Below, one piece after another: positions 2,444 through 30,467 of a DNA stretch of 64,000 nt. The stretch is taken from NCBI GenBank assembly GCA_964187785.1, contig OZ076421.1, positions 43,338,001 through 43,402,000 of the forward strand, in the 5' to 3' direction. The stretch comes from Amphiscolops sp. MND2022. Lineage: Eukaryota. The position numbers and the translations under genes are program-made. Position 1 is the stretch's first letter, and each line of letters opens with the position of its first letter. The notes under the pieces are model-generated. The model saw nothing but the letters and a program-made list of their open reading frames with translations, did not search any database and was not told where the DNA came from.

Positions 2444-2454
2444 CAGAAGCGGTC

Positions 2455-2659: not shown

Positions 2660-2672
2660 CTCAATCCTTCGT

Positions 2673-3759: not shown

Positions 3760-6700
3760 AAAAACCAAAAAAATAAATTTGCCACGATTCCAATTTAATG
3801 ACAAAATACGCGTCAGACAGTATGTAATCTCTGACCCTTCTAATGTATTTTATACCGAACGTTACTCTTCAACTCGGGACACCTCATCGACTGACTGGCA
3901 GCAACAAATGAGAAACATCACTACTCAACTTCACACTTCAGACCACAGGTCCACCCGACCTGATTCGACTACAATCTATATTCGTCCCCTTCCTTGAACC
4001 TGATTACAATCCATATTACATAGATCTTCACTACGGTGTTGATCCCTATTGGGACATTCAAATCTACAATCAACACGAATTACAATTCCATGAAAAATTC
4101 ACTAAGCCAGAAGCTGAAATTGATCTTGACTGTCCCGTGTATGACAGAACTTTAAACGATGTTTTGACCAAAGCTCTGTTTGACCCATGGCAAGAAAAAT
4201 CCAATACTTGTGCTTCACGAGCACAAAATGAATTAGAACATGAATCCTGCAAATCCGGACTACAAGTTTCTTTGACTACAGCCTTCGAAGCACGATTTGT
4301 AAGCACGCTGGTCACCAGAAATTACGCTGGCGTGCCAGATTACGTACCGCTGACAACCAACCTTGGACTCAAATTCAAACGGCGAATGCTCTATTTTCCT
4401 ATGGATTTTAGCGAACTTACATTCGATGGCCTTGTAGACACGGGAGCTCTATCTAGCGCAGTCCCAGAAGCTGATCTACGTAAAATCTTATTGTTAGACC
4501 TTCAGTCAATTGTCAAAGAGGGCACAGCACCCATTATTCAAATCATGGAAGCAAATGGGCAGTTGTGAACACCAAAGAGCACTGGCGAACTAAAAGTTGA
4601 GCTCGGCGATATAGAACTCCACGAAATTTTTGTAATGGAGAACTTAACGATTCCCTTGATTGGCCTTTCGTTCCTACAACGAAACAATACCATACTTGAC
4701 ATGCGACAGGGAGTCTTAAACTTCCCGTTTTCCTCCATGCAATTGAAAACAGCGGATTACAAGTACACCAGCGTCATGGAGTCTATCTGTACACAGGAAG
4801 ATATCACAATTACCCCTAATGATAGACAACTAGTCACGTTGAATTCACAAATGTACGAAAATACCACTGTTACTGGCATCCTCCAACCGAGTATTGCACT
4901 CACTGAAGACGGAGAAATTGCCTCTTGTGCGACATTGGTCACATTGACCTCCGGTCAAGTACATATTCACTTAAATAACTTCACGGACCATCTTTACACC
5001 CTCAAGAGAGGTTCGCATGTCGCCAATTTCTCTGTCATGACCCCAGGACAGATAAAATATGTTAAACCTATAGATCCGGTGACCACTTGGCATCTATTGC
5101 AAGACAACATTGAAAACGATGCCTTTTATGTGAGCAGCTTGATCAAATCTTCCAAACCCTAGGATTTTAAAGAAAACTATTGCTTCCCTACTCCGGAAGG
5201 CCCTGGGGATCCGCAACAACATACGCCTATTCAAAAACGCATTCTACAAGAATTATTGAATCTCCAAGAGCTGGAAAAACTTAATCCTCAGGATGACCCT
5301 GAGTCTAGGCGACAATTCCTGACCAACTTTGATTGGACGGATTCTATGCTGCAACCACAGGAAATCGCCAGCATTGATAATCTATTAGTTCAATTCCACG
5401 ATATTTTTGCAAGACACCCTTTTGACATGGGCATGAACGAGGAGTTTAAAGTTAAACTGACACCAACAGATGATTCCTCGGCTTTGCCCGGACAATCACC
5501 CCGGTTGGAGTACGCCCGCAACGACCACGAGTCCAAAACGTCTCGAAAAAACACAATTCCCAAAATCTAAGAAGGCACTACAACGATACCTATGATTCCT
5601 CAACTACTATCGCAATTACATCCCCAGGCTTTCAGAGATGTTGACTCCGTTCTTTAAATTGTTAAGGAATGATGAAATAGTCTTGGTAACACCGGAACTG
5701 TTGGAAAAATTCACCGCGATAAATATGGCTCTTGACCGTTGTTGCGAATTGGCGCTTAAACAACCGCTACCGAACAAGCAAATAGCCCTCATGACTGATG
5801 ACAGCTTCATGGCTGCTGGATATGCAGTCCTGATTGAGGACGATCCAAGGAAAATACACCTCAACGAGGAAAACTTTTGCTCCGGTGGCTTACGGCTCCA
5901 AGACATTCAGTCCCGCACAGTTGAAAATGTCCATCTACGCTAAGTAATTTGGACATAAATTCTGGGGGACCCCAAATCCGGTCATAATACTAACAGACAA
6001 TAAATCAGTCACGCGCTCCTTTCAAACAAAAATCTTTCCAGATACCCTTTGGAATGCATGTGATTATGTCATCCAATTCAATTTCACCATTGCGCATATT
6101 CCAGGCAAAACAACACAGCTGCGGACTATTTGTCCCGCCTAGAAATCTCTCCTAAGGAAAAACTGATCCTCAGAATCCGCGAAGACATACAAACAAAGCT
6201 ATTGAATTATACGTCCGATCGGCCGGTGTCTCCGAAGAAGAGCAAATATATTATACGGAAGATGATGAGGAAACAAGAACAATTTTGGCAACGTAAAAAA
6301 CAAGCGCGAGAAAACCCTACAAACCATTTTAAGATATATAGCTGAAAACACTCAGCATTCACTACAGCAATCATCGAAAACTTTCAATTCGTCACCATCT
6401 AGCCAAAAACATTGCTATGGCTATAGAACAAAATAACGATCCTTTCCTACAGCAACTCAAACTCAAAATACTGAAGCAAGAACACTCAGAAACGATCCTG
6501 ATACAAGACATCAGATACCAACACTACCTACGTCAATTTAACCGAATGTCCATTCAAGATGAAATCATCACCAGGCAGTACTATGATGAAACAGGAAACA
6601 TCAAATACAACCAAGTACTTCTACCTAAACACCCGGTGACTGAATTACTTGATTCGCTTCACAGGAAAGCTGGTGGACACCCAGGCATAACCAAAATATT

Positions 6701-7690
6701 ACAGGAAATCAGATGCAAATATTATTACTATGGAACAGCAAAACTTCCGAAAATAGGTAAATGAATGCGAAACATGCATCAAAGACAAGACAATTAGCAA
6801 TGAGTTAATAACTCCTGAGCTACTCAATTTACCGGATTGGCCCTCAGGTCCAGAAGACTCAAGGCAAATAGACCTTCTACCAAACCTTCCGCCGAGCGGA
6901 GGATATGAAAATATTATCACAGCTATGGACGTTTTTTCGCGTTATCTTTTTGCTTACCCAGTTACAGACGCATCAGCGACAAATACGGCTAAGGTCATTA
7001 TCGACATCATGATCAAACATACCTATTTGCCAACGACTTTGATTGCCGATAAAGGATCAGCCTTTACTTCAAAATTGGTGGCTGAAATTGCGCAAATTTT
7101 GGGAATCCAAATCAGTTGTGTGACGACAAAACACCCGGAGACCATAGGGAAGCTCGAAAGGACTCATGCAAGTCTCAAAACAAATCTCAAGATGGTTCAG
7201 GGGAGTATAGACATCAGTGGCACAAATATTTACCTCTGGCAGTCCTAAATTACAACACGTCCTACCATTTGACGTTGGGCTGTGAGCCTTTAAAGATATT
7301 CCATGGTCGAATACCCTACAATATTTTAGACCTAAAATTGGGACTCAATCCCAATCCTACAGTTTCACCAACTACTAATTTTGCTGAAGAATTCCAACGC
7401 GGAACGCAAATTCTGAATGATACAACGAGGAAAAACATCTTTTTTGAAGTGCAAGGTATATTATGACCGAAAAGCCAATGCGGCTCCTTTGAAACAAAAT
7501 GATTATTGTTTTAATTTACAACCCATAGTAGATCACCAAAGATCGAAAATCCCATTTCGAGAATTCAGATGGATTGGTCTCTATATAATTGGAAAAGTTT
7601 TATCAAATGACAACTATATCGTCTGAAAACCTAATTCAAACAAAACGCAGAAGTTACACCGTATACGACTACGAAAAGATGAACCGAACG
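3760..7690 (+). pseudogene. pol: Pol of element 1 (aspartic protease, RT with core deleted, RNase H, integrase)
   Basis: LVDTGALSSA protease motif. RT N-terminus FARHPFDMG..FKVKLTP jumps at about 5475 to FLG..RTITP, so YxDD is absent. RNase H LMTD.SF.AAGYAVLIE. Integrase at 6417-7690. Confidence 0.9.
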
Positions 7691-8317: not shown

Positions 8318-11300
8318 CTAGCCTTTACTGCTGCATTGACGCAGATTTTTCGCAGATTGGCTAACTTCGGAATCAGACAGGTGATGAGTGGGCCGAACAT
8401 TCTTCCTCGAGTAACTAAGAGTACTCGGAGGCTGTTGGACCTTAGTGCACTCAGTTGCTTTCACTTTGCTGCCACTACACTGGTATTTGTCCGAAGGATC
8501 CAGTTTAGATAAAAAATCAGAACGTCCAAACTTATCCAGCCCCAACCACGGATCGTAGGTATCGATCAGTGCCGTGCGACCAAAGGTAGACTCTAAATCA
8601 AGGAACTCTGCGATCGAAGCATCAGTAGTAATTGTACTGATTGAATCCTCAACACTGCTGAAGTATGACTGGACTGGAATGACAACGTCGACCAATTTAC
8701 TTGTGAGGTCTCCTGTGTTGACAGATCCGAATTTGACAACAGGATGCGGCCTAAACGGTTCGTCCAGGCAAAGACAAGCAAGCTTGAAGCATCGCAACAG
8801 AAGCGGTCGGGTCGGTAGAGAAGTCTGAACCATGAGGAATTCCACTGTGTCCGGAATAAGCAGAGTGGGTTGATCGAATTCTGCAAACTTTACACTTAAT
8901 TCGTCTACGAAACACAAGTACTCCTCCTGTGCTAAATCTCTTGATCTTGCAAAAAGTAACCTCGGAGACGGAAGGTCATAAACAATTTGCCAAAGCATTT
9001 GGTAGCCAATGAAAGGAGATTTCAAGAGTATTTTCAGGTCGAAACTCCCTGACCCTTGAGCAATTATGGTCGTAAAGTTGAAGTGACTACGTGTCTCTTT
9101 GAACAGTTGAGTGACGTAACTTCTGGCAAGACGACAGTAATCTTCTCGGGCTTTCTCAGTGACTATTTCCAGAGGTAATTTCTCGCCTTTTCGTTCATGC
9201 AACTCCAATTCTGTTTGAATTTTGCATGCCTGGTCCAATTTTGACCAAATTTTCATACAGTTAAGGAAGACAGTCACACTTAGCGCTGAGGCCGTCGCAA
9301 CATCAAGGTCCAGAGTACTTGCAATATCATCTTCAGTCGGAAGGGATGAGGGCAAGACCATTCGTTTTGCTAGATTGCGTAAGAACAAGCACAACTGCCT
9401 GAAGGCATGGAAGGCCCGGTCCCGTTGTCCACTGAGACTGAAAGAGAAGTGAGTAGTATCTAAATAGGATAAAGGTCACACAATGAAGTCTACACCGACA
9501 AGGACCTTTAGCCGAACTGCGTTGCTATATCCCTTGGAAACATACTGAAGAATTTAATTAGAATGCACGAATAACCCCAACCGACAATTACATGGGATAC
9601 GAATGGTGATAGCAGGGAAACAAGCCAACATCGTCAATAATACTCAAAGTCTCGGATGAGTTTGTAATAGAGCTCCGGTTTCAAGTGAAGAAATGGTCGT
9701 AGACTATTGACCACTCAAGGGATTAGGGTTGATTTCTAACTCCCTGCATTTGCTGTTGCTCTGTGTGGGACAGTAAAGAATCAGTAACGGACTTCCAGTG
9801 AGTTATGAGTTCTTGACACAAACTTGGGATGGGCGGTCCATCTAATTTGCCAGCTTTTATCACCTGTAGGAAGAAACTACATTCAGTGATAGCCAAAATT
9901 AAAAATACCTAAGAAATACGAACTCTAGGTCTCACCTTGACTAATGTTGAAGCAAGGAGCGTCCACTCTTGTTGAAGACTGCCGCTCAAGCTGGTCACCA
10001 GGTACTGTAACACAGAAAAGAAATCTATTCTACCAAATACACTGTAGCTATCTTTATGCGATAATTTTCGGATGGCAACCTCGTTGAACAATGTGGGTCT
10101 TTGGACCCCGTGTCTGGTGAGGGGAGATTTGTCCAGCATTTGCACCAAGTTGTAGGTCCCACCTGAACAGCAGACTGAATCGGCTTCGGTAGAGATCGCA
10201 GCTAACAGGGTGCTCACAAGTCGCAGTTCGGCTGAAGTTCGTTCGCTGGTACCCCCGGTCCGCAAGAGGTACACCCTGCACAATCTGTCCGCTTTCCAGA
10301 AGCGTAGGTGCAAGAGAAGAAACACGTTTCAAATTCGAACAAGAACTGTCCGGACGTAAGGACATCGTTGCCCAGATCAGGGATGATTTGCAGAAACAGA
10401 TGATGGAATAGTACCTGAAAGTCACTATTGGGTTAACCAAATTATATTCTCAACTAAAGATGGTACACTTAGTCTTGGGTAGCTAATTGTACTGGTAGTT
10501 CATTCTGAAGCCTAATGAATGGGACGGACAATCACATATGTGGGGACATGGACCTCAGGTAGAAGTGCGTAAGTGTGACTACTTACCGATAACTTGGTGG
10601 TACTCCAGTCAATATCGCAGAATAATGCTTGGTGGTTGACAATTGTGCCGATGTATTGCCAGAGCTTCCGCAAGACAGCATTATCTCCAGATAATGGGAG
10701 GTAATGGCCAAGGATGGAGATCTGGAGACGATTGCGATTTTGTCGTGACGCTGCTATATGATCGGCGCCAGCCATTGCTTCCTCGTAAAATAGAAATTTT
10801 TCCCCTATGTCAACTAGTTCAGAGTTGATGAAATGAGGCAATTCTAACTGCAACTGGTAATTTGTCAGAACTTTACCGTCTCTGCCTCTAACTTGGTATC
10901 GCGGGTCCTCAATTGTAAGGTACTCGTACCTTCAATGCTGGTCTTTGCGCAAAAGTCTCTAAGTGGAGTAATGGCGCAAAATCTCCTTCGGTCCTTTAGC
11001 CTTGATTGAAACATTACATTTGCAAATTTGACAGTATTTTTTTATTTGGATTCCACTTTGGGTCCATGGGGCCAGAAACAAACGTACGAGTCCATGTCAT
11101 AGACCCAAAGTATTCTTTTTTCCTTATTCAGCCAATTCGTCTTCGTGGGGTTGGTCGACCTCGGGATTTGTTAGTGGCATGTGTCCGTTTACTGGCTTTA
11201 CTTTTTTCCTTCATCGCTTCTCGTTTCAAAGTTGCTAATGTTTGAGGACTGGAACATGTAGGGGACGTAGGCCTTGTAGGTAAGTCTGTAATTCCTTCGG

Positions 11301-12359
11301 AAGAGAATCCTGGTGGGGACGGCAAGGTAATGCTGGACTGAAAGTCCTGTCGCGACTCGGCGTCAGTTGATGCCCCGTGACTACTATCACTATCTCCTGC
11401 CCCGTAGGTCATCACGGAATCGCTAAGGAAATCAGTGTCAATCCCTGGGTCCGCAGTAGATTGAGTCTAATTCCGAGGTTGTACTCGGTTGGGCTGCGTA
11501 ATTTCAGCTGACTCGCCCTTTGCACGACACTGTTTAGCATCTCGAAAGACGCACGGGCACCATCATCCGCTACGATACGTAAGATACTACTGATCTGATC
11601 CTGATTGAAGGCGACAGTTGGGTGACCAAGATACAGGCAAATGGGATTGGTTTCTATGAAACACTGCTTGATAATAGCCCTACTAGAGCCAGAAAGCGAA
11701 ACAGAACCTCTGGCTGCTGGGACGGCTGGTACACTGGATTCATTACTTGAATCATGCGGGCAAGCAATACTGGTATGTTTAGTCGGACAATAAAGAGCTT
11801 GAGCAAGGGTAGACCGTTCAATGGACCTAGTGTCAGTTCCCATACCGAAACGGGAGTCATCGTCAGTTTGAGACCCGTAGTCCATTAGACTCCTATGATC
11901 CCTTTGCTCCTCAGACTCGTTTGCATCAGACCTCGTTTGCCCAGTCTGATCAATCGGTACTTCAGAGGCAAGAATTACTACAGGTTGCTCAGCTGATGTG
12001 GTAATCCCCACTGTATTTGCACTAATGTTTGTCACCTGCGGTTGCTCAGTCTGTTCTTCGGGTCTGTCTAAGAAAATAACTCTGGGAACATCTTCGGGGA
12101 CTTGAGTTTCTGGCATTAGTTCATTCATACCAGGAGTAACAGTGAGAGGGTCACTCAGGCTTGTTTTGTTCTGGTTGGAGATTAAATCGTTGGGACTGGG
12201 TTGGGCAAGTTCAAGAGACTCAACTTTCCGACTTATGTAGGCCTCACAACTTTCGGAGTCAATAGTTGACAACAGTTCAAGTATGGACGTCTTGTCCATT
12301 GATAATTCAGTTGTTTCTGGCTCGGGGATTCCTTCTGCTGATTGTTGGGTAATCTCCAT
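8318..12359 (-). pseudogene. Antisense multi-exon accessory gene: disordered N-terminus, CxxC-H-H zinc finger, hAT-transposase-like body
   Basis: ORFs 11412-12359, 11128-11415, 10512-10853, 9909-10325, 8318-9394. My translation near 11040-10960 gives YCQICKCNVSIKAKGPKEILRHYST. GT-AG introns at 9864-9935 and 9438-9545, and a donor at 10586. Colinear homology to the element-2 gene. Confidence 0.8.
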
Positions 12360-13547
12360 TGGCTCAGAGACATTTTGGATTGGCTGGCCGCTCGTTTTGT
12401 TGAATAAACTGAAAGAAATAAATTTCGCGATCCACTTCCGCTAAAAAGATCCATCTCATCGCATTTGAAAGTCTTTCGAAAGCAAGTTTATTAGTTATTC
12501 ATACCTGTGGTCGAATATTTCACGATGAAGGACGATAAAACGTAGTCAATGGGAAGCCCTGATCAAGCTCAAAATTGACGAAATACTTTGAAAAAGAACC
12601 AACCTGATGTTCGTTTATATTGGCGAGCAGAATTGTAAATCAACATTCAACTGTCGAAGTCGGGAACTGGCAATTGCAAATCTAGTTGACTGAGGTTGTA
12701 TGAGAAAATTCTGGATCAAACTGCAGGATAAACAAGAAATTAAGTCGTTGTAGGTCGAACAGACTTACGGTCCAGAGGATGTAAATCTGCGGGCGATGCT
12801 GCTACACGACGACGAAAATTTGACAAGGTTATACTGTGCTGATTCAGCGGGTTAATCGGCCACAGAGAAATAGTAGCAAGCAGTGGGAACGTAGATTGTG
12901 ACAAAATTTAATTCAACTCAAATGAAGTGTTGTCTGCTGAAATTGTTGCTAAACTGGTTTACTTGTTCTACGTCAGTTCGACTACTAGTCCTTTTACTTA
13001 CATTTACTATTAGTGCAACACTTGACTCTCTACACAATTGATTATATAAATACTGAATTTTTTCATAACAATGCAATAAAAGGCGTCGTGGCTACATGCA
13101 AATTATTTCACTATAATTGCGTTAATAATCCTCTCAACTATACTTTTATCAGGACCACCGGTGTTTCAGAACCTGCCAGTGATGCACTACCGGCTATTAC
13201 TTATTGTAACATACTCTTGATTTCTTTGCTAAAACTACCATCATTTTAATCATTCTCATTGATCTTCACCATCTTTATATTATTTCATTCAAGTTTTCTT
13301 CATTTGTTTATCAGATCGTTTTGATTGGCTTATTAGCCAGAACTAGACGAGTAGACCGCCGGTCTTTGGAGATATTTCACTAGTGAAGATGAGTGATAAT
13401 AAACAATCTGATCACCCATTTACACTCCTTCACTAGCAATTACTACTACTTATGGTGGCCCCAAGGACTTGTCAACTTTACTAGCGGCTTATTTTCAAAA
13501 CAGAATTAGGGAAATAATCTGCTTTATGAGGAAACTCAAAAGATTCA

Positions 13548-14382
13548 ATGGAGAGAGCGGATAAAAATTTCCCCAAGGAGGATTTCCGCAAATTTTGTGG
13601 GTCTCGACCTAAGGTCGATCGGGCTGAGACCGTCATAATATCTGAATTTCACCCTACTAAACAGTTGACTTTTCAAATCCGCAAAAATTGCAAAGAAACT
13701 TTTCTTGGAGAAATTTCGAGAATAAATGTCCTTACAATTTTCAGTGGAGGATCTAATCAACCACTAGTCAGCCTTTCATATTTTTCATCGGATGAAGAAA
13801 TAGTAGTGGATGACTCTCCTTCTGTTACCAAAAAAGAAAGTAGCGACAGCGGCATAGTATTTATTGCCTGTTATTCTCAACAACCGCCCCAAGGCCACAA
13901 GAAGTTGCAGGACGAGGCATGACATACGACTTGCCGAAAAATGAAGATGACTTCTCCCTGTACGATGGACTCTACGGCCCATCGACTAAGGTAGACTCTG
14001 ATCCGGCTGGAGAATTAGTTGAATTAGTCCTTGGCAATAATCCCTTGATAGTACACCTAAACCTACCTACCAACAGCCAATTGCCATGTGTAGTCAGTTG
14101 GAACCCTTGCCAGATACCTCGCAGTCTCCTCCTGCCCATGAATGCGGCCAAAATTTCAACCGTTGGAATGACCCATGGGAGGAGGACGATCAATTTCATT
14201 ACCAGCCAGAGAATGCACATATTAGAGGGGTGCCCGTAAGTACTAGCGGGATTTGCGGTAACCCAAATCAAGTCAGCCAAGGCAACCATGCTGTTTGTGG
14301 TAAGAGTTTCGATACGATCAAAGAAGAAATCGTTTTCGATTACTTGGAAAAAAAACCCACATGGCTGGCGAGACATATTTAG
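13548..14382 (+). pseudogene. Sense accessory ORF(s) before the 3' LTR of element 1 (acidic, Ser-rich, unknown function)
   Basis: Overlapping ORFs 13548-13922, 13919-14239 and 14086-14382 suggest one frameshifted gene. Same position and orientation as ORF 26648-27246 in element 2. Confidence 0.5.
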
Positions 14383-14454
14383 CCCGCTGCAAAAGAAGAG
14401 AAGCGTTTCAAGCAGGTATGGCAGCTGGTTCATTTAGTCTCATCCTTGGGGGAG

Positions 14455-16143
14455 TGTCGCAGGCTGCCGCCTGTGACGGCAACAGATATCAAATTGCTCC
14501 AAATGATACGCCCCTTCCCCCTGGAATACTACCACTGTAGGTCACGTGGACCATCAGTCCTCGACTAGCACATATTTTACAAGCAATTGGAACTTATAAA
14601 CTGGCCTTAGTATAATTTTATACTGTTGCGGACCTCAAGTCCACGCGTCTAAGTACAGCCTTTAGTTAGAATAATATTCTTAGTGCAAGACGTATATGCA
14701 AAACTAGTAAGAATGTGTTCAATTATTGGTTTATTATGATATATGTTTTTTGTCATGTAAACCAGATTGCTGGAAATTTTGATTAGTAACAATAAATGTA
14801 AATTAGCAATTCAATGCAACTGTAGTGCTGATAGGAAACGCGTTAAAGTCCTGGTAACAACTAATCAACTTGGACGCGAATTCCATTACATCTTAACCAA
14901 TCAGCGTTCACTATTTCTTTATTCACTTGTGCTATAGTAGTGCTGTCTACCATTGTTGCCTTCAGCTATTTGGACCGCTGGTCCAGGCACAAATTACATG
15001 TAATATTTACTTTAACGTGAATATGATTAGATCAATATAATGTAAGGATCTACTTCAAGGCTTTATAGTTGAAAGTCGTACCGCCTAACCCCCCTGATAC
15101 CATGACCTATTATAATAATCAATTCCCTGAAGTGATGCTATTTTTAGAAACAACTATATTATTTTTAGAAACAACTATATTGACGTATTGGTGTAATTGG
15201 CCCCAAGACCCTATTAATCCTCAGAAGGTTACTAATTTTATCTCAGTTATAACGTCACAGTGACGTCAGGTCAAAGTTGCTAGCTATTTTGAAGTGATGA
15301 CATCGATAATTTTGCGTGTCATGTCCCCCAGAGTATATATACGAGGACCGCAAGTCCGAGAGGCCACAAAATCATCCTTGTACAACTATCACACGAATCA
15401 CGATTGCTGTTATTTTAGTTCAGAGACTACAAGTCTAATTGAAATATTGATACTAGTGTTGACTATTTGTTCGTTGTTCGTTCACTATTCGTTCACAAGT
15501 TCAGTTGATGATAATACTGAGTTCAAACATTATATTTTTGCTTGGCTCAATCTTGTCTCAATGCTTTCAACTAGAAAGCAAAAGGCACAGGAAAAACGTT
15601 CTAGACAATCAGACGTAATGTCTGATCTGGAAAGCATGAATATGATGTTAGGGAAATACTCACGAAATCACTCAGAGGACAAATTAATTGTAAACCTTGA
15701 GATGGACTCAAAGTCCAATGAGACTAGAGCCCACATGGCTCAGAGTTGTGAAGATTTCAGGTCACTGTTAAACACTGAAAATAGAATAGAAAATGAAATA
15801 ACTTGCGGTACTTCTAGGCTAATCAGTACAGAAGTTTCATTGCAAATATCAAGGAACTTAGACGAACTGAAAAGGGATCTAAACTCCCAAATTACGGAGT
15901 CGATCAATTCGGCAATTCACGAAACTGTATTACCTTCATTACAAAATTCATTGTCAGGACTCAATAGTGGGTTAGGGACAAATGTGGACTCAAGGGCCAG
16001 TAGACTAAGCAGGAACACCGAAGGTAGAAAGCACCAAAGTGCTTGGGGAAACACCCACAAAAAAATTCCAACAAATTTCAACGACCATCCTCATTCTAGA
16101 GAGAGTTCCTTAAACTCCCTGGATGGTCGTGGTGATCATGACA
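14455..16143 (+). repeat. 3' LTR of element 1 (about 1.69 kb)
   Basis: Starts TGTCG after the purine run GGGGGAG (14448-14454) and ends TGACA. Last 188 bp repeated at 2455-2642. First 25 nt are identical to the TSD-defined terminus of solo LTR 43403-44549. Confidence 0.85.
15561..16143 (+). CDS. gag: N-terminal ~194 codons of Gag encoded inside the LTR (orphaned in the 3' LTR)
   Basis: Open frame MLSTRKQKAQEKRSRQ... (part of ORF 15294-16148) runs to the LTR end and stops 5 nt into flanking DNA. In the 2455-2642 copy the same sequence leads into PBS and gag. Confidence 0.7.
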
Positions 16144-16506
16144 ATTAATTTTTGAGGTCTATAGCTGGAGCTGATTGTTGTTTAATATTATCAGTATTTC
16201 CACTAAAGTTTTGTGTCGAAAAAAGTAAAACTTCGGTCAAAAGTTGGCTGTCAATTGCATACAATAAACTTCGAAGACCTTTAAGTCATCATCCTGAAAT
16301 TTTCTTGAAAACGTGAGATTTGCAGCTAAGCATACACGACTGTTTGGTTGTTATCAATGATTTAGGTTTATCACAACATTTACATCAAAGCCAAAGATTG
16401 TACATCTACCGCGCAAGACAGAATTTGTTGACAAAAATACTGTACAAGTTTGTTCTGTAGCAGAATTTGATGAACTTCTCGAAGAATTGAGTTCTGGCTA
16501 AGCAAG

Positions 16507-18632
16507 TGTCACAGTCCGCTCCCGGACTGGATTGCGGTTGTAGACGAGTCAGCTACGGAAGAGGCTATGGTTGTACTGCACACTTACAAAATGGTATTTT
16601 GGATTCTGCCACAATTTAGTTCGTACCACAACTCTCAAATGATTAAATAAACTGTGACTGGAAATACAAAATATCCGTCTGCCTTGCGCAAATCCTGAAT
16701 AAGAAATGAAAATAAAAAATAAAATGATCTAAAATGTTTTCACTCATTTCGCAAGACGTTTTTGCCACGTCAAAATAGTAACATCTCAGTTCTGCCAAGA
16801 AAACTCGTCAACATGACGTTGACAAGTTTATGAAAATTAATTCTGCCAAGAAAACTTGTCAACATGGCGTTGACAAGTTTATGAAAATAGGCAAAATGAA
16901 CGAATTCGCCAGATTAGTCAGGAATTTCATCGCATTGAGGCTGCTAGCTCATAGGGAACGATATTTACGGGTTACCTTAAATTGTAAAACAAATACTTTA
17001 CCAGTATGTTTCACGACTTAAAGATCAAATCTAAGATGTAATTGATACATTGAAACATTGAAACATTGAAACATTGAAACATTGAAACATTGAGTTTCAT
17101 TGGATTAATATACATGACATACATTAAAGTATTCATAAATGTATAGAAAATCCAATGTGGACACAAAATGAGCATCAGTGCTCTTCAAGTTTGTGCCCAT
17201 TCATGATAGAGTAACCCAATAGAGTTGATACATGCAGAGTAACCCAAATTCGTGTCAACTAGCCGTCTTGCACTTTTAACAATAAGTTTAGTTGTCCGCA
17301 AAGGCCGTTTCAAATGGGATTTTATAATTGCAGAGACGGAAAGTCACAGTTCATATCCATAACTAAAGTGTATTTTATACTGAAAATGTATTTTTGCATA
17401 TTTACATTTTTGTACTTGAGATTTCCAGACAATGTTTCATAATCGTGCTTGTGACCATATTTTTGTACCAGTTCATCGTTGCTGTTCATTAAAATTGCTG
17501 TATTACTGTTGCTGTTGAATAAGTGCTGATGTACAAGTAACAATTTTTTATAATAGTCAACTTGTCGCAATTGTCGCGTCAATCTAAAGTTATCGTGTGT
17601 GTACTAATATGTTTTGTTGATAATCATAAACGTTAAATTTGCCTTAATCTAGTATTTCACTCATTAACCTCTTCAAAATATCTTCCTAGCATCGCCCAAA
17701 TAATCGTAATTTGGAAATGAGTCATCGCGTTTGATCAAGCTGAATTTCAAAATCAGGTATTAGTTGATCACGCAGCGTCATCTCAGCGTCAATTTTCCGC
17801 GAACCAAAGCAGTAAAACAGGTAATCATTTCCGGTTTGACAGACTGAAGTAATATCTACTTCCTGCTTGGGAGGAAGCAAAAGGACGCCGGGATGAAATA
17901 ATATGCTCGTGATAGATGACTAATAGGGAAAACTATTGCCGTGTCTCAAAATTTGACGAAATGTCGATGCAAATTTGGGATCCTAATAATTTTTTCACCG
18001 TAAAAACAGAAAATGACTAATTGTTCGAAAGAAGTTGGGAATATGTACGTGATCAAATGATGCTAGGAGGGTATATATATGATGTGTAACCTTATTCAAG
18101 GGACTCAGTCCTTTTCAAGCGCTATAATTCAGTTGTTTCAACTTGTTTTGCCCAAACCTCATTCTCAACTCTGTCAAAACCAGAAGACAAATTTGAATTC
18201 TTTGAGAAACAAGCTTTCCCATCAATATGTCAACAACAAGAAGTCAAAAGAGAAGAAACACTCAGCGAGAGACTGAAGACAACGTAAGTGAAGGTTTCAT
18301 TTCACCAATAAATATAGAGAGCTCTCGTTCTTCGAACCAGGATACCGACGTGGCAGGCCCGTCGAGACCAAAATCTCCTAGGGTAGAAAATTGCTCCTTG
18401 GAGAGTTTGAGAGCTTCTTTAAAAGAGGAGATTACGTCTGAGATCAAAAATCTTCTTCTAGAATCCCAAAGAGAAATGTTGAGGCTTCTAAGATCTGAAA
18501 CAGGAAAAAATGTAAGAAATAGCACTGTTGATGAAACGGAAAATGAAACAAGGAGCTTCCATACTCCAACGAGAAAAGTACGAATCAACTCTACCGAAAA
18601 TAACGACCCTGACACGAACGTAAATCGTAACA
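16507..18632 (+). repeat. 5' LTR of element 2
   Basis: Long direct repeat of 27299-29693 apart from indels, TG...CA termini, TATA-like TATATATA near 18074. Confidence 0.95.
17041..17093. repeat. (ATTGAAAC)n microsatellite, about 6 units, in the 5' LTR only
   Basis: Directly visible tandem 8-mer; absent from the 3' LTR. Confidence 0.9.
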
Positions 18633-19685
18633 TGGTGACAGGAGCTCTAACCGACTCCACAAATCACCCGAAAAGACCAAAAATAAGGTCTCAGAGCCAA
18701 CCAGCGCCAAAAGAGCGTCCCGCAGTAGCTAGAACACTGTTTGGAGCAGAAAGAAACGACAACCCCGCGTTACCTATGCCAAAAGCACTAACGGCCTCAC
18801 TCCCTACATTTGACGGGAAAACCGAAAAATTCGAACTTTTCGAGGATCTTTTCCGCAACAACATCAAAATGTATCCGCACCTCACGGAACTCCAAAAAAT
18901 CAACTATTTTCACTCCTTGCTACGAGGAGACGCCCTACAAGCGTTTTGCAATATAGAAGATGCGAAAAAAGATTTGCTAGAAGAAATCATGACGATTTTT
19001 AAACGCCGTTTTGGCGAATATTTACCAATGGCAAAAGCCAGACAAGAATGGGACACACTCCCCAACACAAACACCAACACAAACCTACGTGAACTTTTGG
19101 ACGTCCTCCAAAAAATTGCAAAGGAAGCCTTCGGTTCGGAAGCCCAACAATTCATTGACAAGGCTATATACGCCAAGATGCCTGATCACGTCAAAAAGAT
19201 ACTTAACAGGGCATATCTTGAAGACAAGCCGTAGAGTGACATTGTACTCCACCTTGAAAGGGAGATGCGGCTCAATGGCCTCGGTGTACCAGAGGATGTC
19301 AACTTAGTACCGCTAAATGATATAGAGTCAGCCGAAACAAAGCCCGAGACCAAACCAAACAAAAATACCACCCAAAATACAACACAAAACCATAAAAAAG
19401 GATACTGCTTGTACTGCAATAAGTTTGGCCATTTCAAAGCAGAGTGTCGAAAACTGAGAAGGGATGAATGGCAACAGACAAAGAAGAACAACGGCCAAAC
19501 CAAAAATAACGCAGGCACCACACATAAATGTGATACATGCGGAAAACCTCACAAAACGGAAGATTGATGGAATGGAGCCAACTTGGCCAACAACCCGAGA
19601 CCTAAACGACATTTCCAATGAGAAGAACACTGATACTTCCACCCAGCAATCGACAACTAATTTCGGAGACGAATCAAAAAACTAG
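18227..19685 (+). pseudogene. gag: Gag of element 2, initiating inside the LTR
   Basis: ORF 18227-19234 starts 406 nt before the LTR end and crosses the PBS in frame (...NRN|MVTG...). Knuckles CLYCNKFGHFKAEC and CDTCGKPHKTED. Internal stop at 19234 plus frameshifts. Confidence 0.9.
18633..18644 (+). promoter_or_regulatory. Primer binding site (tRNA-Leu type)
   Basis: TGGTGACAGGAG immediately after the LTR-terminal CA. Confidence 0.8.
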
Positions 19686-22204
19686 TTACGCCGCTCCTGC
19701 GTTTCGGGGAAACCGTAGACGCGAGGGCGTATCCACCAAAAGACCCCCTCACTACTTACACAGATAACTCAACAATAGAGTGTGACGGTACTCCAACAGG
19801 GGACTGGTTGAGACAACAAGCACTCGCAGCAAAAAAAAAGACCAATACGACAACCAGAAAGAGAGGCAATCTACACTCAAGACAAAGACTACAGAGACGA
19901 CCATACACGTCATGCCAACCCCATCATCCAGCTCCCTTGCTCCACCAAAGAACAAACAGCTAAAACCCAAATAGACCTAAATGAAAATGCCACCGGCGAC
20001 CACTCATCGCCACAAACGAACGAAGAAGATACTCACGGTCCCACCAGGTTACCTATCTTACACGACGATCTCCCCACCTCCCTTAATTCGATCAAAGAGT
20101 ACATAACTGAAAAAGATGGGGATACCTACATACTTCTGCACTCGACCATAGTCCTCAAGAACAGAAGACGAATGCTGTACTTGCCACTCGAGTTCGGCGA
20201 AACAACCATGGACGGCCTCGTTGACTCAAGATTGAACGTGCAAACGCCCAACTCGAACAACCTATCGCCACTGCTGTTATTCAATTCAATATCGGAACAA
20301 ATACGTTCACCGACACCTTTGTCATCCTATCAAAGACGTCATTCCCCATAATTGGAGTGAATTTTATGAGAAACCACCAAGCCGTGATAGATACGGCCAA
20401 CGGGAGCATCACCTTCCCACATGTCGAAATGACATTAGTCATGACAGACGAAAAGAAAAACTGTAACCCCAAACCTCTCCAAATCATGGCCGAAGGAAAT
20501 CAAACGCTGCTACCACAACAAACAACAACAGTAAAAGCAATAGTCATAACCACCAATGCAACCGGCATCACAGGTGCAGTACAACCGCTACCACAGTTTG
20601 ATGAAACAGCCACCATCATCGTTGCACCAGCTTTGGCACAGCTCATAACAAACGAATCAACCTCCGAATAGCCAACTTGACAGATTTCTCTCACACCATA
20701 AAAAACCATACCAAACTGGCAGAATTGCAAATTTTTAGGCCAAAGGACACCAATTAGATACGACTCATAGACGTCGCAACACTGACCACCCTACAAGACC
20801 CAGATGACACGCACATGTATGTAAATGAGCTCATGAAATCCACAAATAACGAACAAAACGACAAAAACATCTGGTTCCCAACACCCGAAAACCCGGGAAA
20901 CGAAGATGAACACACGCCAATACAACGGCGAAAATTAAAAGAAATCAGAGAACTCATGAAGAAAGAACAACTCGACCCCACCAAAGATCCATAATCAAGG
21001 AAAAAGAGTTCCTCGATATGTTCAAATGGGAAGGATCGCAGATTGAGGGAAACGACGAAAAACAGCTTGAGCAAACGATAGTTGAATACAACTACATTTT
21101 TGCGCGTCACAGACTCAACATCGGCATCAACAATAGCTTCAAAGTGAAACTGACGCCAAAAGACGAACGCCCCATATACACACAAAGCCTACCAGTACCA
21201 ATCAACTTGAAAGAAGACCTAACAGTCGAACTAGCGCTCATGCACAGGTATGGCATAATCACGACATTACCATTTTCAAAATATGCCAGCCCGATTTTCG
21301 CACAACGTAAATCAAATGGTAAGCTACGTCTACTTGTCGACCTGCGAAAAATCAACGCACTGATATCTGACGGCTACATCAACAACAATAATCCAGTCAG
21401 CACCCTGTCAGACGCAGCTCAACACCTAGCTGGGCAAAAAATGTTCTGTCAAATAGATTGCTCTCAAGCATATCACTGCCTGCAAATGGTGGATCAAAGA
21501 TCCATCGAAATGCTAGCGTTAAACTTTGCAAGCAGAACCTTCGCATACAAACGACTGACACAAGGACTGAGCAGAGCTTTGTCAGCATTTTCAAGCTTCA
21601 TGAGAGAATATTTGGATAAAGTAATCAAAACTGACCAGTGCGCGCAATATGTGGATGATATTGGAATAGATGCCAACTCCGTGACGCAACTGATACGAAA
21701 CATTCGAGCTGTCTTTGAATGCATCAGACAAGCAGGGCTTGAACCATCCAATGACAAGTGCCATTTTGGAGTGACTGAGGACGAATTCCTTGGAAGAACG
21801 ATCACCCCACAAGGAATTGCCCCCCAAGACCACAAAATCCAGAAATTCAGAAATCAAAGAAGCAAGTACAAAGATACATAGGCTTTGTCAACTACGACCG
21901 CAACTATATCCCGCGGTTGTCAGAAAAGTTACTCGGTTTCTACGAGCTACTGAAAGCAGACAAACAAATCAAGGTCACAGAGGAATTGCTAGATAACTAC
22001 AAAGCGATCAACGCAGCACTAGCGGAGGCATGTGGATTGGCTCTCAAACAACCTATCACAGGACGACTATTTGTCCTAATGACGGATGCAAGTTTTCGCG
22101 CCTCGGGATATCCGCTAATGATCGAAGAAGAGAATGACAAAAAACTCAATTCCAAAAAAATACTTTTGCTCCTGTAGCATTTGGACTGAAGATGTCAATT
22201 TATT
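19686..22204 (+). pseudogene. pol: Pol of element 2: degenerate protease, RT, truncated RNase H; integrase absent
   Basis: RT motifs SKYASPIF, LRLLVDLRKIN, FCQIDCSQAYH, QGLS, QYVDDIG. RNase H LMTDASFRASGY. Sequence leaves pol just after KMSIY at about 22204. Confidence 0.92.
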
Positions 22205-22291
22205 AGGTTTTTCCAAACAAAAGCAGAACGTTTTGCGTTATTTCTGGAAGCAATTGGAAATAATCAGTACATATACAATACAACAACAGTT

Positions 22292-25200
22292 TCAAACCAC
22301 ATGAATAATAAAATACACTAGTCTTTTGACGACGAGGCTCCACTTTTCTTCACTGACTTGGTAGACCCTTTTTTTCTTCGACTCAGCATCGACAGCTTCC
22401 CTTGCAGATCTTTTTCGACCAAGCAACGACCCCAGACTACTGTACTTCTGCCCTTTACTAGGACAACCGGAACTCGTTCCACTGTCACCCTGAGCTGCAA
22501 CGACTGCACCAGCAACAGAGGACTCGCCACTTTCTGAATAAGTCACAGTAGTCAAATCAGAATGACCAGCAGACTGAGCACGACTACCATGTATGTTTGC
22601 GACACGAAGTCGGTGGTACGACTCGTCCTTTTTCTGCGCCACATAAGCCTCGAACAATGACGTATAACGACTCACGAAGCCACTCTGCCCACCACTGCAA
22701 ATCCTGCTCAATGGATCAAACTCGGTACAGGACATAAAAGAATACGAGTTGACGATAGCATCGCGAATACATTCCATAGTGTGCTTGGTAAAAATGATTT
22801 CTGTGTGTAATTTGGCGACAGCACCCAGCTCTGAACACCACGGATACAAGATGATACTACAAGCTTTGGCACAGTGCAACCTGACAGATCAATATCAACG
22901 ACAGGAGAATTACGTTGAGGTTTTACAACAACCAGACAGCACAACTTGAATACTCGACATAAGTTTTTTCGAGCTAAATAACTGTAATCCGATAACGGAA
23001 ACGTCCCCAAATCGGGGATCTCGTCAACATGTTGATTGCTAGTATCATGTCGGACACGATCATCAACAACAAAAGATGAAAATTCCTCAATCGCAGCACC
23101 AGCCTCAACGTCAGTCACCACTTTGCATCGTTTCAGTAATGCAACCAAACAATTGAACAGTCCAAAGATATATTCATCACCTCCTCCAAGCAATATTTCA
23201 GGACAAAAACAATAGATATACTGCATGAAATCCGAGGAAGCAGGGTATTGCATCAGAACAATATCCACAAACCGATCAATAAAATCGGGACACTGACGAT
23301 GGAACTCTCGTGCCTCACCACCTCTGATGCCCCACAAGACACTGCCAAACTCATAATTCATCAGCAAATCATCACACGACAACTTCTCCATGTAGGCAAC
23401 TTTGGAAACGTCCATGTAATCTTCCCACGAGTTCAAAGGGGGCAGGGATGCACTTTTACGGCTACGAGACAATAATCCATATACGAATTGACTCAGTTCC
23501 ATATAAAAATGGAAGCCATAATCAGATCGTCCAGCACATCGCTTCTTGAAGGGAACGGCATCTGCAACACAACAAGAAGCAAATACAACACTGTCCCGCA
23601 ACTGTAACGACGAGTAAATGAGAAAGATGACGATGCTATAAAGACAACAGCACAACAAATACACGACAATATAAAATAACACGAGACTTACGGAGATCAA
23701 GAATGTGACCAAGAAGGCCAAGTCGTATTACAATCGTGTTGTCGCTGCTCACCAACCAGTCCAGTCCTCGCATCTGCAACAAATCACAACCAAATTAAAT
23801 ATAACCATATAAGAATTCACGTCGCCTCGCCCAACCCGATTCCATGGCACAACCATAACCTTACACAACTCCTTATTTTAGGTAAAGGACATCTCACCTT
23901 ATCAACCTCACATCTAGAATGTCCAGGAGCCGTGTATCGCACAAACTCTCGTACAATTGTCCAACTGGCCACGAGATCAGCCACCACCTGTCGCAGATCT
24001 GCAAACGTCACGCGACCAGAGAGCACACAGCGCTGAAGGGTACGAGCCCCGTCCATCCACGATTCCTGAAGGGCACCCCGCAACCGCAACATCAGAAAGT
24101 CAATCATCAATGACGTATCCAGCCTACCGAAGACCTCTTGCTCAGCCTGACGATATTCTCGTAGAAAATCATCTTCAGTAAACTCTCGACAATAAAAAAA
24201 TTGGCGTCCATCGACACGGTTGTCTTTCAAGACACGCAGAAGTGACGTACTACACCCTGGCATGGCAGAAGCAATTGGCAAGACGACACACTGTCCACAA
24301 CACGAGAGATGCCAGCCAACTCCGCAACAGGCACACGCTAACCAGCGGACTCCACCCGAACACACACAGAAAAAAGAGAATCGTCGTCCCAAGTGTGGAC
24401 AAAGCACTCATGAGTTGTAGCATCACTGACGAAGAAGACGCTGTACTCACGGAAGGATGCGATCCGAGAAACAAGCAATCGCAACACTCGCGGGAACAAA
24501 GCCTGGCAGATCAGGGACTAAAACAGAATAAAACACCATAAACACCATAAGTGACCTTCCCTAGCCCACCCAACCACCGATACACGCCCACTTACTGCAA
24601 GTCATAAATACACAAAACAACTCACCAAGGTTTCAGCACGATCCCACTTCAGGCTGAACAGAGGCTCCTCGGGACCAAGAGTAGCACGAAAACACCCCCA
24701 CAACTTCCTCAGTAGGGTGTAACTCCCTCCACAACGGAACAGTTCTAACACGCTGTTAATCATCGTCATGAGTGGAACAGAAGAGTCCACACGAGTGCAT
24801 GAAGGAAGAAGATCCTCCGGGAAGCTAAAACCCTCCGCCAGACCCTTACTTGGACGACTCATGTAATCAGACACTTGGGCCTCACTCAGTTCGATAGGAT
24901 CCATGAGCCGATTGAATATGGGAAGATCATGTTGCACCCGATACGTCACATCCAACTGCCAATGACGTTTCCCAAAGAAGTGACGCGAGAACTCCGATGC
25001 ACCATGAGATTCCATCGACACATCCCGATGACAGATTTTGCAGAAAAACAATTTGTCGGACCCCGTATTCGAACCACTCGCAAACAGTTGATAGATAGGG
25101 TTATCACCAACCATATCGCGACGGAGTCGATTCCGGGAACTGTTAACCCCTCTGCGCTGATGTTGTGGCGCCACAACTCCTTCCAAACTGGTCTCCACTC

Positions 25201-26181
25201 GGGACACAAGCTCTTGAAACCCTACAAACATCAAACACCACTTACCGAATAAAGAGTAACAACACTCAGACATCAATCCCTGGCCATTGAACACCCCCCT
25301 TCTCTTCAACTACTCTACAGACAGGAAATGAAACAACAAAATACTAACGAGTAACGAGGGGCTCCATCGTCCGATGTTCCAACTCAGTGGCCAATTTCTC
25401 TCCAAGCCTCACGGCTTGACGGGGTGTACATGGCAATCCGGACGTGTCAACTGGGACACTCCCACTGCTCTCAAGCTCGAATCGCAAAGTACGCGAGGCT
25501 GTTTTTGAGGCTGTTCTCTCTTCATGGCCCCGAGAGCGCAAACACCTCGATGAACTTGGTGGAGCGCAACCAGAGCGCAACATTGAACCTACACACAAAA
25601 CAACCAATTTCCACAAAGGCTCCACACCGGAAACGTCGAATCAACAAGACATAAAACTTCACAAAATATGAAAACATAGGAAAAAGACACTGAACGCATA
25701 CACTAAAATCGGCTCTAACCTCGCCCAAGCTCTGCACTAGTGGGCAACACGTTGGAGCCCACGTTAAATTCAGACAGGAAAGACGGAAAACATGGTGAAG
25801 TCGTTTTCTGCCCATCAACAACAACAGCTGCTGCAGCAGACAACGGAACGACCTCCACTGCAGAGAGATCTGCGGGCAAGGAGATTCCAGAAACAACTGC
25901 TGGCACCACAAGAACGGAACCATGTAAATCAGACCCTGAAACAACATTCCCAAATCGACGTGTCAGAAAACCTAAGCTGTGAAAATGCGAAACAGAAAAG
26001 GCCTATTTGACAGTAGTAATATTCACAAAAGCTTAATGGATTGGGGAACGACAAACTTACCAGCAATAGGATGTACAGTCGAAGGGTTAGCATCACTCTC
26101 CCGAACGTCTGCTTCTGAGAAGAGGAATTGAGTCTCGTGACCGCTCTGGAAGCCAGATTCAACACGGCGCGGAGACGACAT
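22292..26181 (-). pseudogene. Antisense multi-exon accessory gene of element 2 (zinc finger, hAT-transposase-like)
   Basis: ORFs 24602-25309 (FFCKICHRDVSMESHGASEFSRHFFGKRH), 23817-24407, 22708-23721, 22292-22879. GT-AG introns at 25977-26060, about 24518-24625, 23774-23897 and 23602-23691. Candidate ATG at 26181. Confidence 0.8.
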
Positions 26182-26242
26182 CTTTCTTTTTAACAAGGCG
26201 ATCTAAAAAGAGGAAGAGATGAAAACAACAACCAAAACTGAC

Positions 26243-26531: not shown

Positions 26532-26647
26532 CAGAATAGAGGGATTTTTCCCAATATTCTCCTTAATCCTAAGTAATCCGAAAAATCATTGTGGAAAGAA
26601 CAGAGTTAAAGTGCAGCTACAAAAAACCTCCAATTCATCACAACCAG

Positions 26648-27298: not shown

Positions 27299-29693
27299 TG
27301 TCACAGTCCGCTCCCGGACTGGATTGCGGTTGTAGACGAGTCGGCTACGGACGAGGCCATGGGTGTACTGCAAAACTCACAAAAGGTATTTTGGATTCTA
27401 AACTCTCATAAGATTAAATAAAATGTGACTGGAAATACAAATTATCTGTCTGCCTTGCGCAAATCCTGAATAAGAAATGAAAATAAGAAATAAAATGATC
27501 TAAAATGTTTTCACTCATTTCGCAAGACGTTTTTGCCACGTCAAAATAGTAACATTCACCACCTGAAAACTAAATTAAGACACGTTTTAAAACAAAGAGA
27601 ACATTAGCCAATCTAAATGAAAACATATCCTAAATCATCTCCGAAAGGAACATCAATCAGATCGAAAAAAATATCAGATGGCACGTCAGAGAAACTAAGC
27701 CTGTTCTAAGAAAGGCAGCTTTATTACTCTTTGAACAGCAATTAGTGTGGTGTAGGACGTCAATATTGCGCTGAGCAAACAATACGGCGGAAGAAATAAG
27801 AATACATGTATATTTGTCGTCAGTAAGTCGCAGACAAGTTTGAAGGTATATCAATTGACGTCACTGCCTCGCCTATGCGTACCAGAAAATCATTCCAATT
27901 ATCCGCCTATGTTAATAATTTTACTAGAAATCATTCCAATTTACCGCCATTGTGACGTCACCACACCGGCAGCTAGCTAGAAAATCATTCTAAAATACTC
28001 GTCAGCATTACATCAAACTAGTCAAAATGTCAGTTCTGCCAAGAAAACTCGTCAACATGACGTTGTCAAGTTTATGAAAATTAATTCTGCCAAGAAAACT
28101 TGTCAACATGGCGTTGACCAGTTTATGAAAATAGGCAAAATGAACGAATTCGCCAGATTAGTCAAGAATTTCATCGCATTTAGGCTGCTAGCTCATAGGG
28201 AGCCATATTTACGGGTTACCTTAAATTGTAAAACAAATACTTTACTAGTATGTTTCACGACTTAAAGATCAAATCTAAGATGTAGTTGATACATGCAGAG
28301 TAACCCAAATTCGTGTCAACTAGCCGTCCTGCACTTTTAACAATAAGTTTAGTTCTCCGCAAAGGCCGTTTCGAATGGGATTTTATAATTGCAGAGACGG
28401 AAAGTCACAGTTCATATCCATAACTAAAGTGTATTTTATACTGAAAATGTATTTTTGCATATTTACATTTTTGTACTTGATATTTCCAGACAATGTTTCA
28501 TAATCGTGCTTGTGAGCATATTTTTGTACCAGTTCATCGTTGCTGTTCATTAAAATTGCTGTATTACTGTTGCTGTTGAATAAGTGCTGATGTACAAGTA
28601 ACAATTTTTTATAATAGTCAACTTGTCGCAATTGTCGCGTCAATCTAAAGTTATCGTGTGTGTACTAATATGTTTTGTTGATAATCATAAACGTTAAATT
28701 TGCCTTAATCTAGTATTTCACTCATTAACCTCTTCAAAATATCTTCCTAGCATCGCCCAAATAATCGTAATTTGGAAATGAGTCATCGCGTTTGATCAAG
28801 CTGAATTTCAAAATCAGGTGTTAGTTGATCACGCAGCGTCATCTCAGCGTCAATTTTCCGCGAACCAAAGCAGTAAAACAGGTAATCATTTCCGGTTTGA
28901 CAGACTGAAGTAATATCTACTTCCTGCTTGGGAGGAAGCAAAAGGACGCCGGGATGAAATAATATGCTCGTGATAGATGACTAATAGGGAAAACTATTGC
29001 CGTGTCTCAAAATTTGACGATATGTCGATGCAAATTTGGGATCTTAATAATTTTTTCACCGTAAAAACAGGAAATGACTAATTGTTCGAAAGAAGTTGGG
29101 AATATGTACGTGATCAAATGATGCTAGGAGGGTATATATATGATGTGTAACCTTATTCAAGGGACTCAGTCCTTTTCAAGAGCTATAATTCAGTTGTTTC
29201 AACTTGTTTTGCCCAAACCTCATTCTCAACTCTGTCAAAACCAGAAGACAAATTTGAATTCTTTGAGAAACAAGCTTTCCCATCAATATGTCAACAACAA
29301 GAAGTCAAAAGAGAAGAAACACTCAGCGAGAGGCTGAAGACAACGTAAGTGAAGGTTTCATTTCACCAATAAATATAGAGAGCTCTCGTTCTTCGAACCA
29401 GGATACCGACGTGGCAGGCCCGTCGAGACCAAAATCTCCTAGGGTAGTAAATTGCTCCTTGGAGAGTTTGAGAGCTTCTTTAAAAGAGGAGATTACGTCT
29501 GAGATCAAAAACCTTCTTCTAGAATCCCAAAGAGAAATGTTGAAGCTTCTAAGATCTGAAACAGGAGAAAATGTAAGAAATAGCACAGTAGATGAAACGG
29601 AAAATGAAACAAGGCGCTTCCATACTCCGACGAAAATAGTACGAATCAACTCTACTCAAAATAACGACCCTGACACGAACGTAAATCGTAACA
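27299..29693 (+). repeat. 3' LTR of element 2, including an orphan Gag N-terminus (29288-29693)
   Basis: Direct repeat of the 5' LTR. ORF 29288-29755 equals the Gag N-terminus up to ...NVNRN and then reads into flanking DNA. Confidence 0.95.
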
Positions 29694-30467
29694 GTAAGTA
29701 TACTGATCAGAAGAAGTACACGCTTTGTTGTACTTCATGCAACACGCAATTCTAAAAATGATATCGGTTGAACAATTTTTACTCAATTTTTTACGTGAAA
29801 ATTTTCCAAAAGATTTTTCCGTTTTGCAAAATGTTTGTCAAAATCTCTCATACGTCATTTAGTCGTTCAATTGAGCCTAGTCGTGACTGAAACGGACACA
29901 AAAACAAGCAAGACGGTTCGTCACTCCATGTACCTACATTTTTGCGACAAACGTCAGGTTACTGCTGGAAATACAAAAACGCAGTTCTAGTGTAAATTCG
30001 ATCTGATTGGTTCGTCCTTTAGTTTATTTTCCGGTCTGTGCTTGCTCCCAATAGCCGGTTTTGAGCTCACAAAGATATCATTTAAGTAGCATCAATTGCA
30101 TCAGTTACAAAGGAACTTTGGGTTCCAATACTTGCATGCTTTTTGTATTCAAGAAAGAACGATCTGAAAAAGCGCCAGGATAAATCAGAAATTTTCTCAA
30201 AAAAACAGGTATACCACCCACGGGAAAAACTTCATGACTTCATGGGGAATATTGAGCAACACTGGGACGCGTGTCATCAGAAGATTCAACGCAGCAAGCA
30301 CTATGCTACACGATGGTAGAAAAAATCAGTATGTGAGTAACTAGTGAACAATGCACTTCACTTTCGTGTGAGAGTGCATTTCCGACAAATCGGCCTTTTT
30401 TCATCGTTAATCTAACTTCTCTGATTCTGTTCGACGACTTCGTCTAATGCTTTTCTCAAAAGTTTTC

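Follow-up and report, generated by a model that had tools for sequence, protein, structure and literature searches.

Where Gag begins is the question raised by this 64-kb window (the whole stretch of 64,000 nucleotides that was analysed), which holds two retroelements that carry long terminal repeats (LTRs) and one solo LTR, all of them decayed copies, and whose proteins we take to resemble acoel-worm repeats. The sequence-only reading had placed the start 135-194 codons inside the LTR, in two and probably three LTR families, with the frame continuing through the primer-binding site (PBS). The explanation that we favour, at a probability of roughly 0.85, is that these copies derive from a Ty3/gypsy-like clade in which the promoter lies deep in a long LTR and Gag starts at an ATG of the LTR, reading through the integrase attachment (att) end and the PBS. 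The arrangement is clearest in element 2, whose LTRs were found by self-comparison:

16507-29693, plus strand: element 2, gypsy-like
16507..18632, plus strand: 5' LTR, 2126 nt (compared with the 3' LTR, a 473-nt gap and a 183-nt insertion)
18227..18632, plus strand: LTR-coded Gag N-terminus, 135 codons plus 1 nt, made up of a basic start, disordered linkers and a single long helix
18227..19234, plus strand: gag open reading frame (ORF), 335 aa, premature stop at 19232
18632..18644, plus strand: LTR end and PBS; the LTR-terminal A and the TG of the PBS form an in-frame Met136
~18809-19123, plus strand: capsid-type domain of gag, from a domain search
19406-19447, plus strand: CCHC knuckle, in frame past the gag stop
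20910..22177, plus strand: reverse transcriptase (RT) region, broken
22292..26189, minus strand: region of antisense ORFs, located between pol and 3' LTR
27299..29693, plus strand: 3' LTR, 2395 nt
29288..29755, plus strand: ORF of the 3' LTR, 135 Gag codons plus 20 flank codons, 155 aa

The two LTRs have TG...CA termini, differ by about 2.3% in aligned blocks and are flanked by a 5-bp target duplication with one mismatch (16502-16506 / 29694-29698). The Gag ATG at 18227 lies 406 nt upstream of the LTR end at 18632, and its frame is stop-free across CA/TGGTGACAGGAG (LTR end/PBS), as had been claimed and as the sequence confirms; the repetition of the Gag N-terminus in the 3' LTR (29288-29693) is likewise confirmed, the frame there running on into the flank. 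A stop-free, ATG-started run of such length ending at the LTR end appeared in 0 of 5000 first-order Markov simulations for element 2 and in 0 of 5000 for element 1, each based on the last 1000 nt of the LTR. The PBS contains a stop codon in one of its three reading frames, and the LTR ORFs of element 1, element 2 and the solo LTR all end in the same phase. No integrase match was found in the element 2 copy. Differences between its LTRs are concentrated at 18451-18596 versus 29512-29657, with 13 in 406 coding nt against 10 in 1004 non-coding nt (p=0.005), a cluster that is possibly a conversion or template-switch tract. The purine tract that precedes the 3' LTR in element 1 is absent from element 2 (27284-27298), where a short inverted repeat lies across the boundary instead.

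Upstream of the Gag ATG, and within its coding part, the 5' LTR of element 2 contains the following sequence words:

18072..18079, plus strand: TATA box candidate, from the sequence
18105..18110, plus strand: initiator-like word; by its spacing, the transcription start is predicted here, about 120 nt before the Gag ATG
18307..18312, plus strand: AATAAA within coding sequence, a word that the family does not conserve

The TATA box and the initiator-like word thus sit 120-155 nt ahead of the Gag ATG, and the stretch from initiator to start contains no ATG. Judging by this spacing, transcription would begin about 120 nt ahead of the Gag ATG, and the transcribed part of the LTR (R-U5, >500 nt) would hold the 5' UTR together with the first 114-216 gag codons; ribosomes would then start at the LTR ATG and pass through the integrase attachment end and the PBS. 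The AATAAA pointed out by the sequence-only reading is present, but as a family poly(A) signal it was rejected: it is possible in register in only 13 of 87 homologue rows, and none was found downstream of the TATA box in the element 1 LTR, so that the R/U5 boundary is not placed by it. A PBS beginning with TGG adjoins the 5' LTR of element 2 and is mutated in element 1; it presumably may pair with a leucine tRNA. No tRNA genes were found in the 64-kb window, nor was the PBS motif found in the accessible content of seven supplements of PMC13524379. Each LTR opens with a short hairpin-like inverted repeat (14455-14479, 16507-16530 and 44525-44549).

Element 1 carries a longer LTR frame, in a copy that has been rearranged:

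2452..2642, plus strand: 5' LTR remnant, last 191 nt only, with a mutated PBS from 2643
2670..3774, plus strand: internal gag, broken, 69-76% identity to residues 226-598 of homologue P0009
~5160-5940, plus strand: RT homology, upstream of integrase
6342..7466, plus strand: integrase, downstream of RT
8318..14433, minus strand: region of antisense ORFs, located between pol and 3' LTR
14455..16143, plus strand: 3' LTR, 1689 nt, intact, with a purine tract directly upstream
15334-15341, plus strand: TATA candidate of the 3' LTR, a sequence word
15561..16148, plus strand: LTR ORF, 194 LTR codons (583 nt in the LTR) plus 1 flank codon, 195 aa, 49% identity to P0009 residues 1-147

One out-of-frame ATG (15508) precedes the ORF start at 15561. 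The 5' junction is mutated: the LTR frame meets a stop 14 codons beyond the LTR end and gag homology goes on in another frame. The 583-nt open frame described earlier is therefore present, but the read-through is broken in this copy, and it is a natural homologue, P0009, that joins both parts in a single protein (LTR-type residues 1-147 at 49% and internal gag residues 226-491 at 69% identity, with the junction at 216). The 5' LTR remnant follows a second copy of the integrase region (1-2457 = 6357-8811, 97.5% identity), with short microhomology at the join to the remnant, which is either a tandem rearrangement or an assembly feature. Between the protease and RT regions there is a weak dUTPase-like Pfam match (4569-5159; E 7e-4, under the cut-off).

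The same layout recurs well beyond the window. A homology search gave 1178 relatives, of which the best 120 were considered, along with 9 longer ones; 114 close rows were kept and 15 left out (9 long, 6 of a sister family). In 85 of these 114 close homologues, an aligned start Met lies 119-135 codons ahead of the junction. Across the family, 105 of 114 rows with a long N-terminus show the junction peptide, by a pattern that missed P0009 and P0001; they sort into 7 lineages with identities under 50%, most of the first junctions lying at 114-195. At least seven N-terminal lineages share a basic, Met-started leader, and 114-216 codons lie ahead of the junction in at least seven. One lineage carries three to eight tandem in-frame copies of the junction peptide, the count being 3-7 with the stricter pattern and 4-8 with a looser one. 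These tandem LTR-end/PBS peptides occur in the Gag of P0002-P0006, P0008 and P0180, mostly at a spacing of 10-14 aa, and are absent from the window elements; they suggest repeated duplication of the att/PBS junction.

What the LTR contributes to Gag is dominated by a single segment:

18380..18490, plus strand: predicted helix, residues 52-88 (pLDDT 82-95 over residues 61-90)

In the AlphaFold model of the window Gag, whose mean pLDDT is 47, this helix is the sole confident part, and it is the best-conserved LTR-coded block after the basic start (pairwise identity 0.81). Its hydrophobic residues are spaced 3-4-4 and are barely more conserved than the other positions (0.83 versus 0.80). A three-copy self-association model of the helix scored 0.35, against 0.02 for the best of three controls and a mark of 0.32, which it only just exceeds and which 21 of 30 solved pairs but none of 23 single chains attained. 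This comparison is tempered by the fact that three-copy models fall outside this calibration and that, among eukaryotic proteins lacking an older solved relative, only 1 of 7 passed. Contacts are at least 70% the same between runs, with pLDDT of at least 66. On these models the helix is a probable parallel coiled coil. The LTR-coded piece has no capsid domain, since the capsid-type domain starts about 50-60 codons past the junction and the zinc knuckles are internal too; the basic leader and coiled coil would aid Gag oligomerisation ahead of the internal capsid and zinc-knuckle domains. A PDB sequence search with the full-length homologue P0010 returned no matches at E<=1, and the fold-atlas comparison of Gag residues 1-190 was uninformative (best 0.78).

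Since U5 is copied to both ends of the element during reverse transcription, every 3' or solo LTR inherits a Gag N-terminal ORF. This is visible in the protein library, where a profile search gave 1761 matches. Among the best 150 of these, 63 rows span the LTR part, of which 18 stop at the junction, 36 continue and 9 stop earlier. Also among the best 150, 32 rows reach the LTR end; 12 of them were classed as internal, a call that is probably wrong for P0208, and the other 20 pass into unrelated tails of 14-108 aa. For 19 of these tails the first residue can be encoded by a codon with initial A (background 0.42, p=9e-7), which is the signature of an LTR that ends one base into a codon, and no similarity was found among the 16 tails of at least 20 aa. 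By their sequences, the ORFs with unrelated tails are best read as those of 3' or solo LTRs continuing into the flank. That such LTRs carry Gag-N-plus-flank ORFs, as the sequence-only reading had proposed, consequently holds across the family, with at least 20 library ORFs leaving the homology exactly at the LTR end. Thr is the first flank residue in 9 of the 20, implying that flanks often begin with C (or G), which may reflect a target-site preference.

The solo LTR of the window shows what may become of such frames:

43403..44549, minus strand: solo LTR with a perfect 5-bp target duplication
43389..43661, minus strand: ORF reported earlier for the solo LTR, 86 LTR codons plus 4 flank codons, partly off the homologous frame, 26 codons microsatellite

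Its first 25 nt are identical to those of the element 1 LTR, the remainder having diverged. It aligns with the element-1-type Gag P0163 in two neighbouring frames, with E 0.001 and 0.003 against the whole window and E 4.8 for the next match, and the decayed Gag N-terminal homology, at 43793-43515, is split over these frames and contains four stops. These matches point to a decayed descendant of a Gag-in-LTR family that is a relative of the element 1 clade. As for the ORF that reaches its 3' end, a GAG microsatellite makes up 26 of the 86 LTR codons, the other run of 60 codons has P=0.018 for the given phase and 0.058 for any phase, and residues 1-57 had no longer homologue at E<=10 among 20 candidate longer proteins. 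Gag-in-LTR ancestry is thus supported for the solo LTR, but an intact Gag start is not.

That the LTR-coded piece acts alone, with 3' and solo LTRs expressing a coiled coil with a random tail that joins full-length Gag in assembly and so limits transposition, or is occasionally exapted, is improbable, even though it is the alternative that survives best. Solitary-fragment ORFs are indeed common (the 20 tailed ORFs among the best 150 library matches, and those of 155 and 195 aa in the window), the helix passes the self-association model, and Gag fragments able to restrict are known in Ty1 p22 and Drt2, as the available portion of PMC13709905 describes. The resemblance to p22/p18 and Drt2 is that a Gag fragment could arise apart from full-length Gag. 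In the same portion of that source, Ty1 p22 acts via the capsid C-terminal domain; the piece described here lacks the capsid domain that p22 and Drt2 use, and for this reason it is not p22-like. The tails are mutually dissimilar, and the solo LTR of the window has a broken Gag frame and no TATA word, as neutral decay predicts. Selection on the 5' copy fully explains why these ORFs are open; the truncated ORFs are a consequence of reverse transcription and require no function. Copy-number control or exaptation, as suggested by the sequence-only reading, is unsupported. A coiled-coil route to restriction is possible on the modelling. More speculative, and slightly less probable again, is a scenario in which the LTR boundary shifted downstream into gag as the LTR-end/PBS junction was duplicated in frame (one lineage still having tandem copies of it), until the oligomerisation domain became LTR-borne, in which solo and 3' LTRs express a capsid-less coiled-coil decoy that poisons Gag assembly, a brake growing with the number of solo LTRs, and in which insertions offer promoter-plus-coiled-coil cassettes for host fusion genes. 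Under the favoured reading, with Gag starting at the LTR ATG, the Gag-N ORFs of 3' and solo LTRs that run into random flank would most likely be an unselected, decaying by-product.

Whether the LTR-coded part has been selected as protein was judged from substitutions among the homologues, with singleton changes treated as post-insertion decay. Over LTR codons 1-128, singleton changes have a mean BLOSUM score of -0.33 (n=215), equal to the neutral expectation of -0.33, and shared changes a mean of +0.82 (n=200). In a stricter test on two-state columns, shared changes average +0.77 (n=35) and singletons -0.78 (n=97; p=4.7e-6), and the shared columns exceed the neutral expectation (-0.18 to -0.38) even for transitions only (-0.18), with the reservation that the rows were pre-selected as open ORFs and are mutually related, so columns are not fully independent. 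The contrast persists within the helix, outside it and at three thresholds, and internal gag behaves similarly (shared +0.68 versus singleton -0.50). Conservation is lower in the LTR-coded part (0.73) than in the capsid (0.90). Protein-level constraint on the LTR-coded part is supported by these alignments. On the codon-level bias that the sequence-only reading had put forward as a check, the sole DNA-level comparison is that of the element 2 5' and 3' LTRs, where 5 of 13 coding changes are synonymous, which is not significant (p=0.21). At the att site and PBS, which had also been held to be under coding constraint, conservation is equally explicable by constraint on the DNA, and the stop-free phase alone is established.

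These substitutions bear directly on a start at the ATG of the LTR/PBS junction, with the upstream frame open by chance or kept by RNA or DNA signals of U5, a region that carries cis signals in all LTR elements. This alternative, which we consider very unlikely, draws on the Met found at the junction column (codon 136) in 105 of 110 homologue rows and on database ORF clusters that begin at the junction ATG (P0117-P0119, one with 43 members). The junction Met is forced, however, because CA and TGG are invariant; openness by chance was not reproduced in the 5000 simulations; the conservative bias lies above even the transitions-only expectation; the RNA that encodes the helix does not fold unusually (z=+0.38, in a range of -1.7 to +0.4 for three segments); and a basic, Met-started leader with 114-216 open codons stands ahead of the junction in at least seven lineages. 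The junction ATG may also serve as a second start. That the repeat is a chance duplication including the gag start, and no LTR at all, can be set aside in spite of the large internal duplication in element 1 and the missing purine tract before the 3' LTR of element 2, given the TG...CA ends, the target duplications, the PBS directly after the repeat and the agreement of 19 of 20 independent library ORFs in end point and in codon phase.

The elements are Ty3/gypsy-like: they combine TG...CA ends and short target duplications with a TGG PBS and the order gag-protease-RT-integrase, the protease being found in homologue P0001. In a PDB ranking, which is not a tree, Ty3 RT comes first among the solved structures (E 1.7e-12), with foamy-virus RT close behind (3.7e-12); RNase H was not detected by Pfam. 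Gag homologues show weak Retrotrans_gag and Ty3_capsid matches, and also a match to a DUF1759-type Gag domain, which is linked to Bel/Pao and alone is not diagnostic. With Ty3/gypsy elements (Metaviridae) they have in common the order LTR-PBS-gag-PR-RT-IN-PPT-LTR, the PPT being present in element 1 and absent from the element 2 copy; typically, gag starts downstream of the PBS in that group, whereas here it begins upstream, and ORFs of 4-6 kb in antisense precede the 3' LTR. The Ty1 LTR codes for only about a dozen Gag residues, against 114-216 codons with a helix here. What the two share is a gag ATG within the LTR and a frame open through the PBS, Ty1 gag beginning in the 5' LTR according to the available text of PMC3522557. 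In element 1 integrase lies after RT, not upstream of it as in Ty1/copia, and these elements therefore belong to another superfamily. Coding frames inside LTRs are also known from MMTV sag and HIV nef, which occupy U3 and give rise to proteins of their own, expressed from the 3' LTR; the present frame is downstream of the promoter and forms the front of Gag. The Oikopleura Tor elements, likewise gypsy-like and from a marine invertebrate, have a start site in the 5' LTR, and the available part of that account (PMC4402516) mentions no gag that starts there; in the present elements, no env was identified. LTR elements predominate in acoel genomes, as far as the accessible portion of the published description goes. 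A literature search, weak in that subscription journals and repeat databases lay outside it, returned Ty1 as the sole precedent for a gag beginning in the LTR, no animal gypsy-like clade with a long LTR-coded Gag and no tandem PBS arrays; repeat databases may already note such LTR ORFs. It is well supported that the layout is real and family-wide, an extreme Ty3/gypsy-like variant of the arrangement in Ty1.

Annotation tools and dating by LTR divergence treat LTRs as non-coding. If the LTR of this clade bears up to a third of Gag, including the predicted helix, any Gag call beginning downstream of the PBS is truncated, U5 would evolve under protein selection, and every solo LTR would seed a promoter and an ORF of 130-200 codons fused to host DNA. 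LTR-flank ORFs, at least 20 of them in the protein library searched, appear as spurious orphan proteins. Two questions are raised: can an N-terminal Gag fragment restrict its own element, and can LTR boundaries shift by duplication of the PBS?

Further features of the window deserve mention. Antisense ORFs of 4-6 kb lie between pol and the 3' LTR in both elements (8318-14433 and 22292-26189, both minus strand); one pair is homologous between them (38% over 66 aa, E 6e-6), none has a Pfam match, a C2H2-like motif can be seen by eye in the ORF at 24602-25309, and the fold-atlas comparison of one gave Sec23-helical (0.90, with low recognition), a lead only. A perfect 486-nt tandem duplicate (30669-31639), directly after a 200-N gap (30468-30667), is probably an assembly artefact. 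Fragments of a further retroelement occupy 61196-63613, with integrase domains at 62326-62904, and an endonuclease-RT-like fragment is found at 56832-57263. A cluster of direct and inverted repeats at 46973-49150 (a 350-nt direct pair and inverted copies of about 50-115 nt) is possibly a nest of small DNA transposons.
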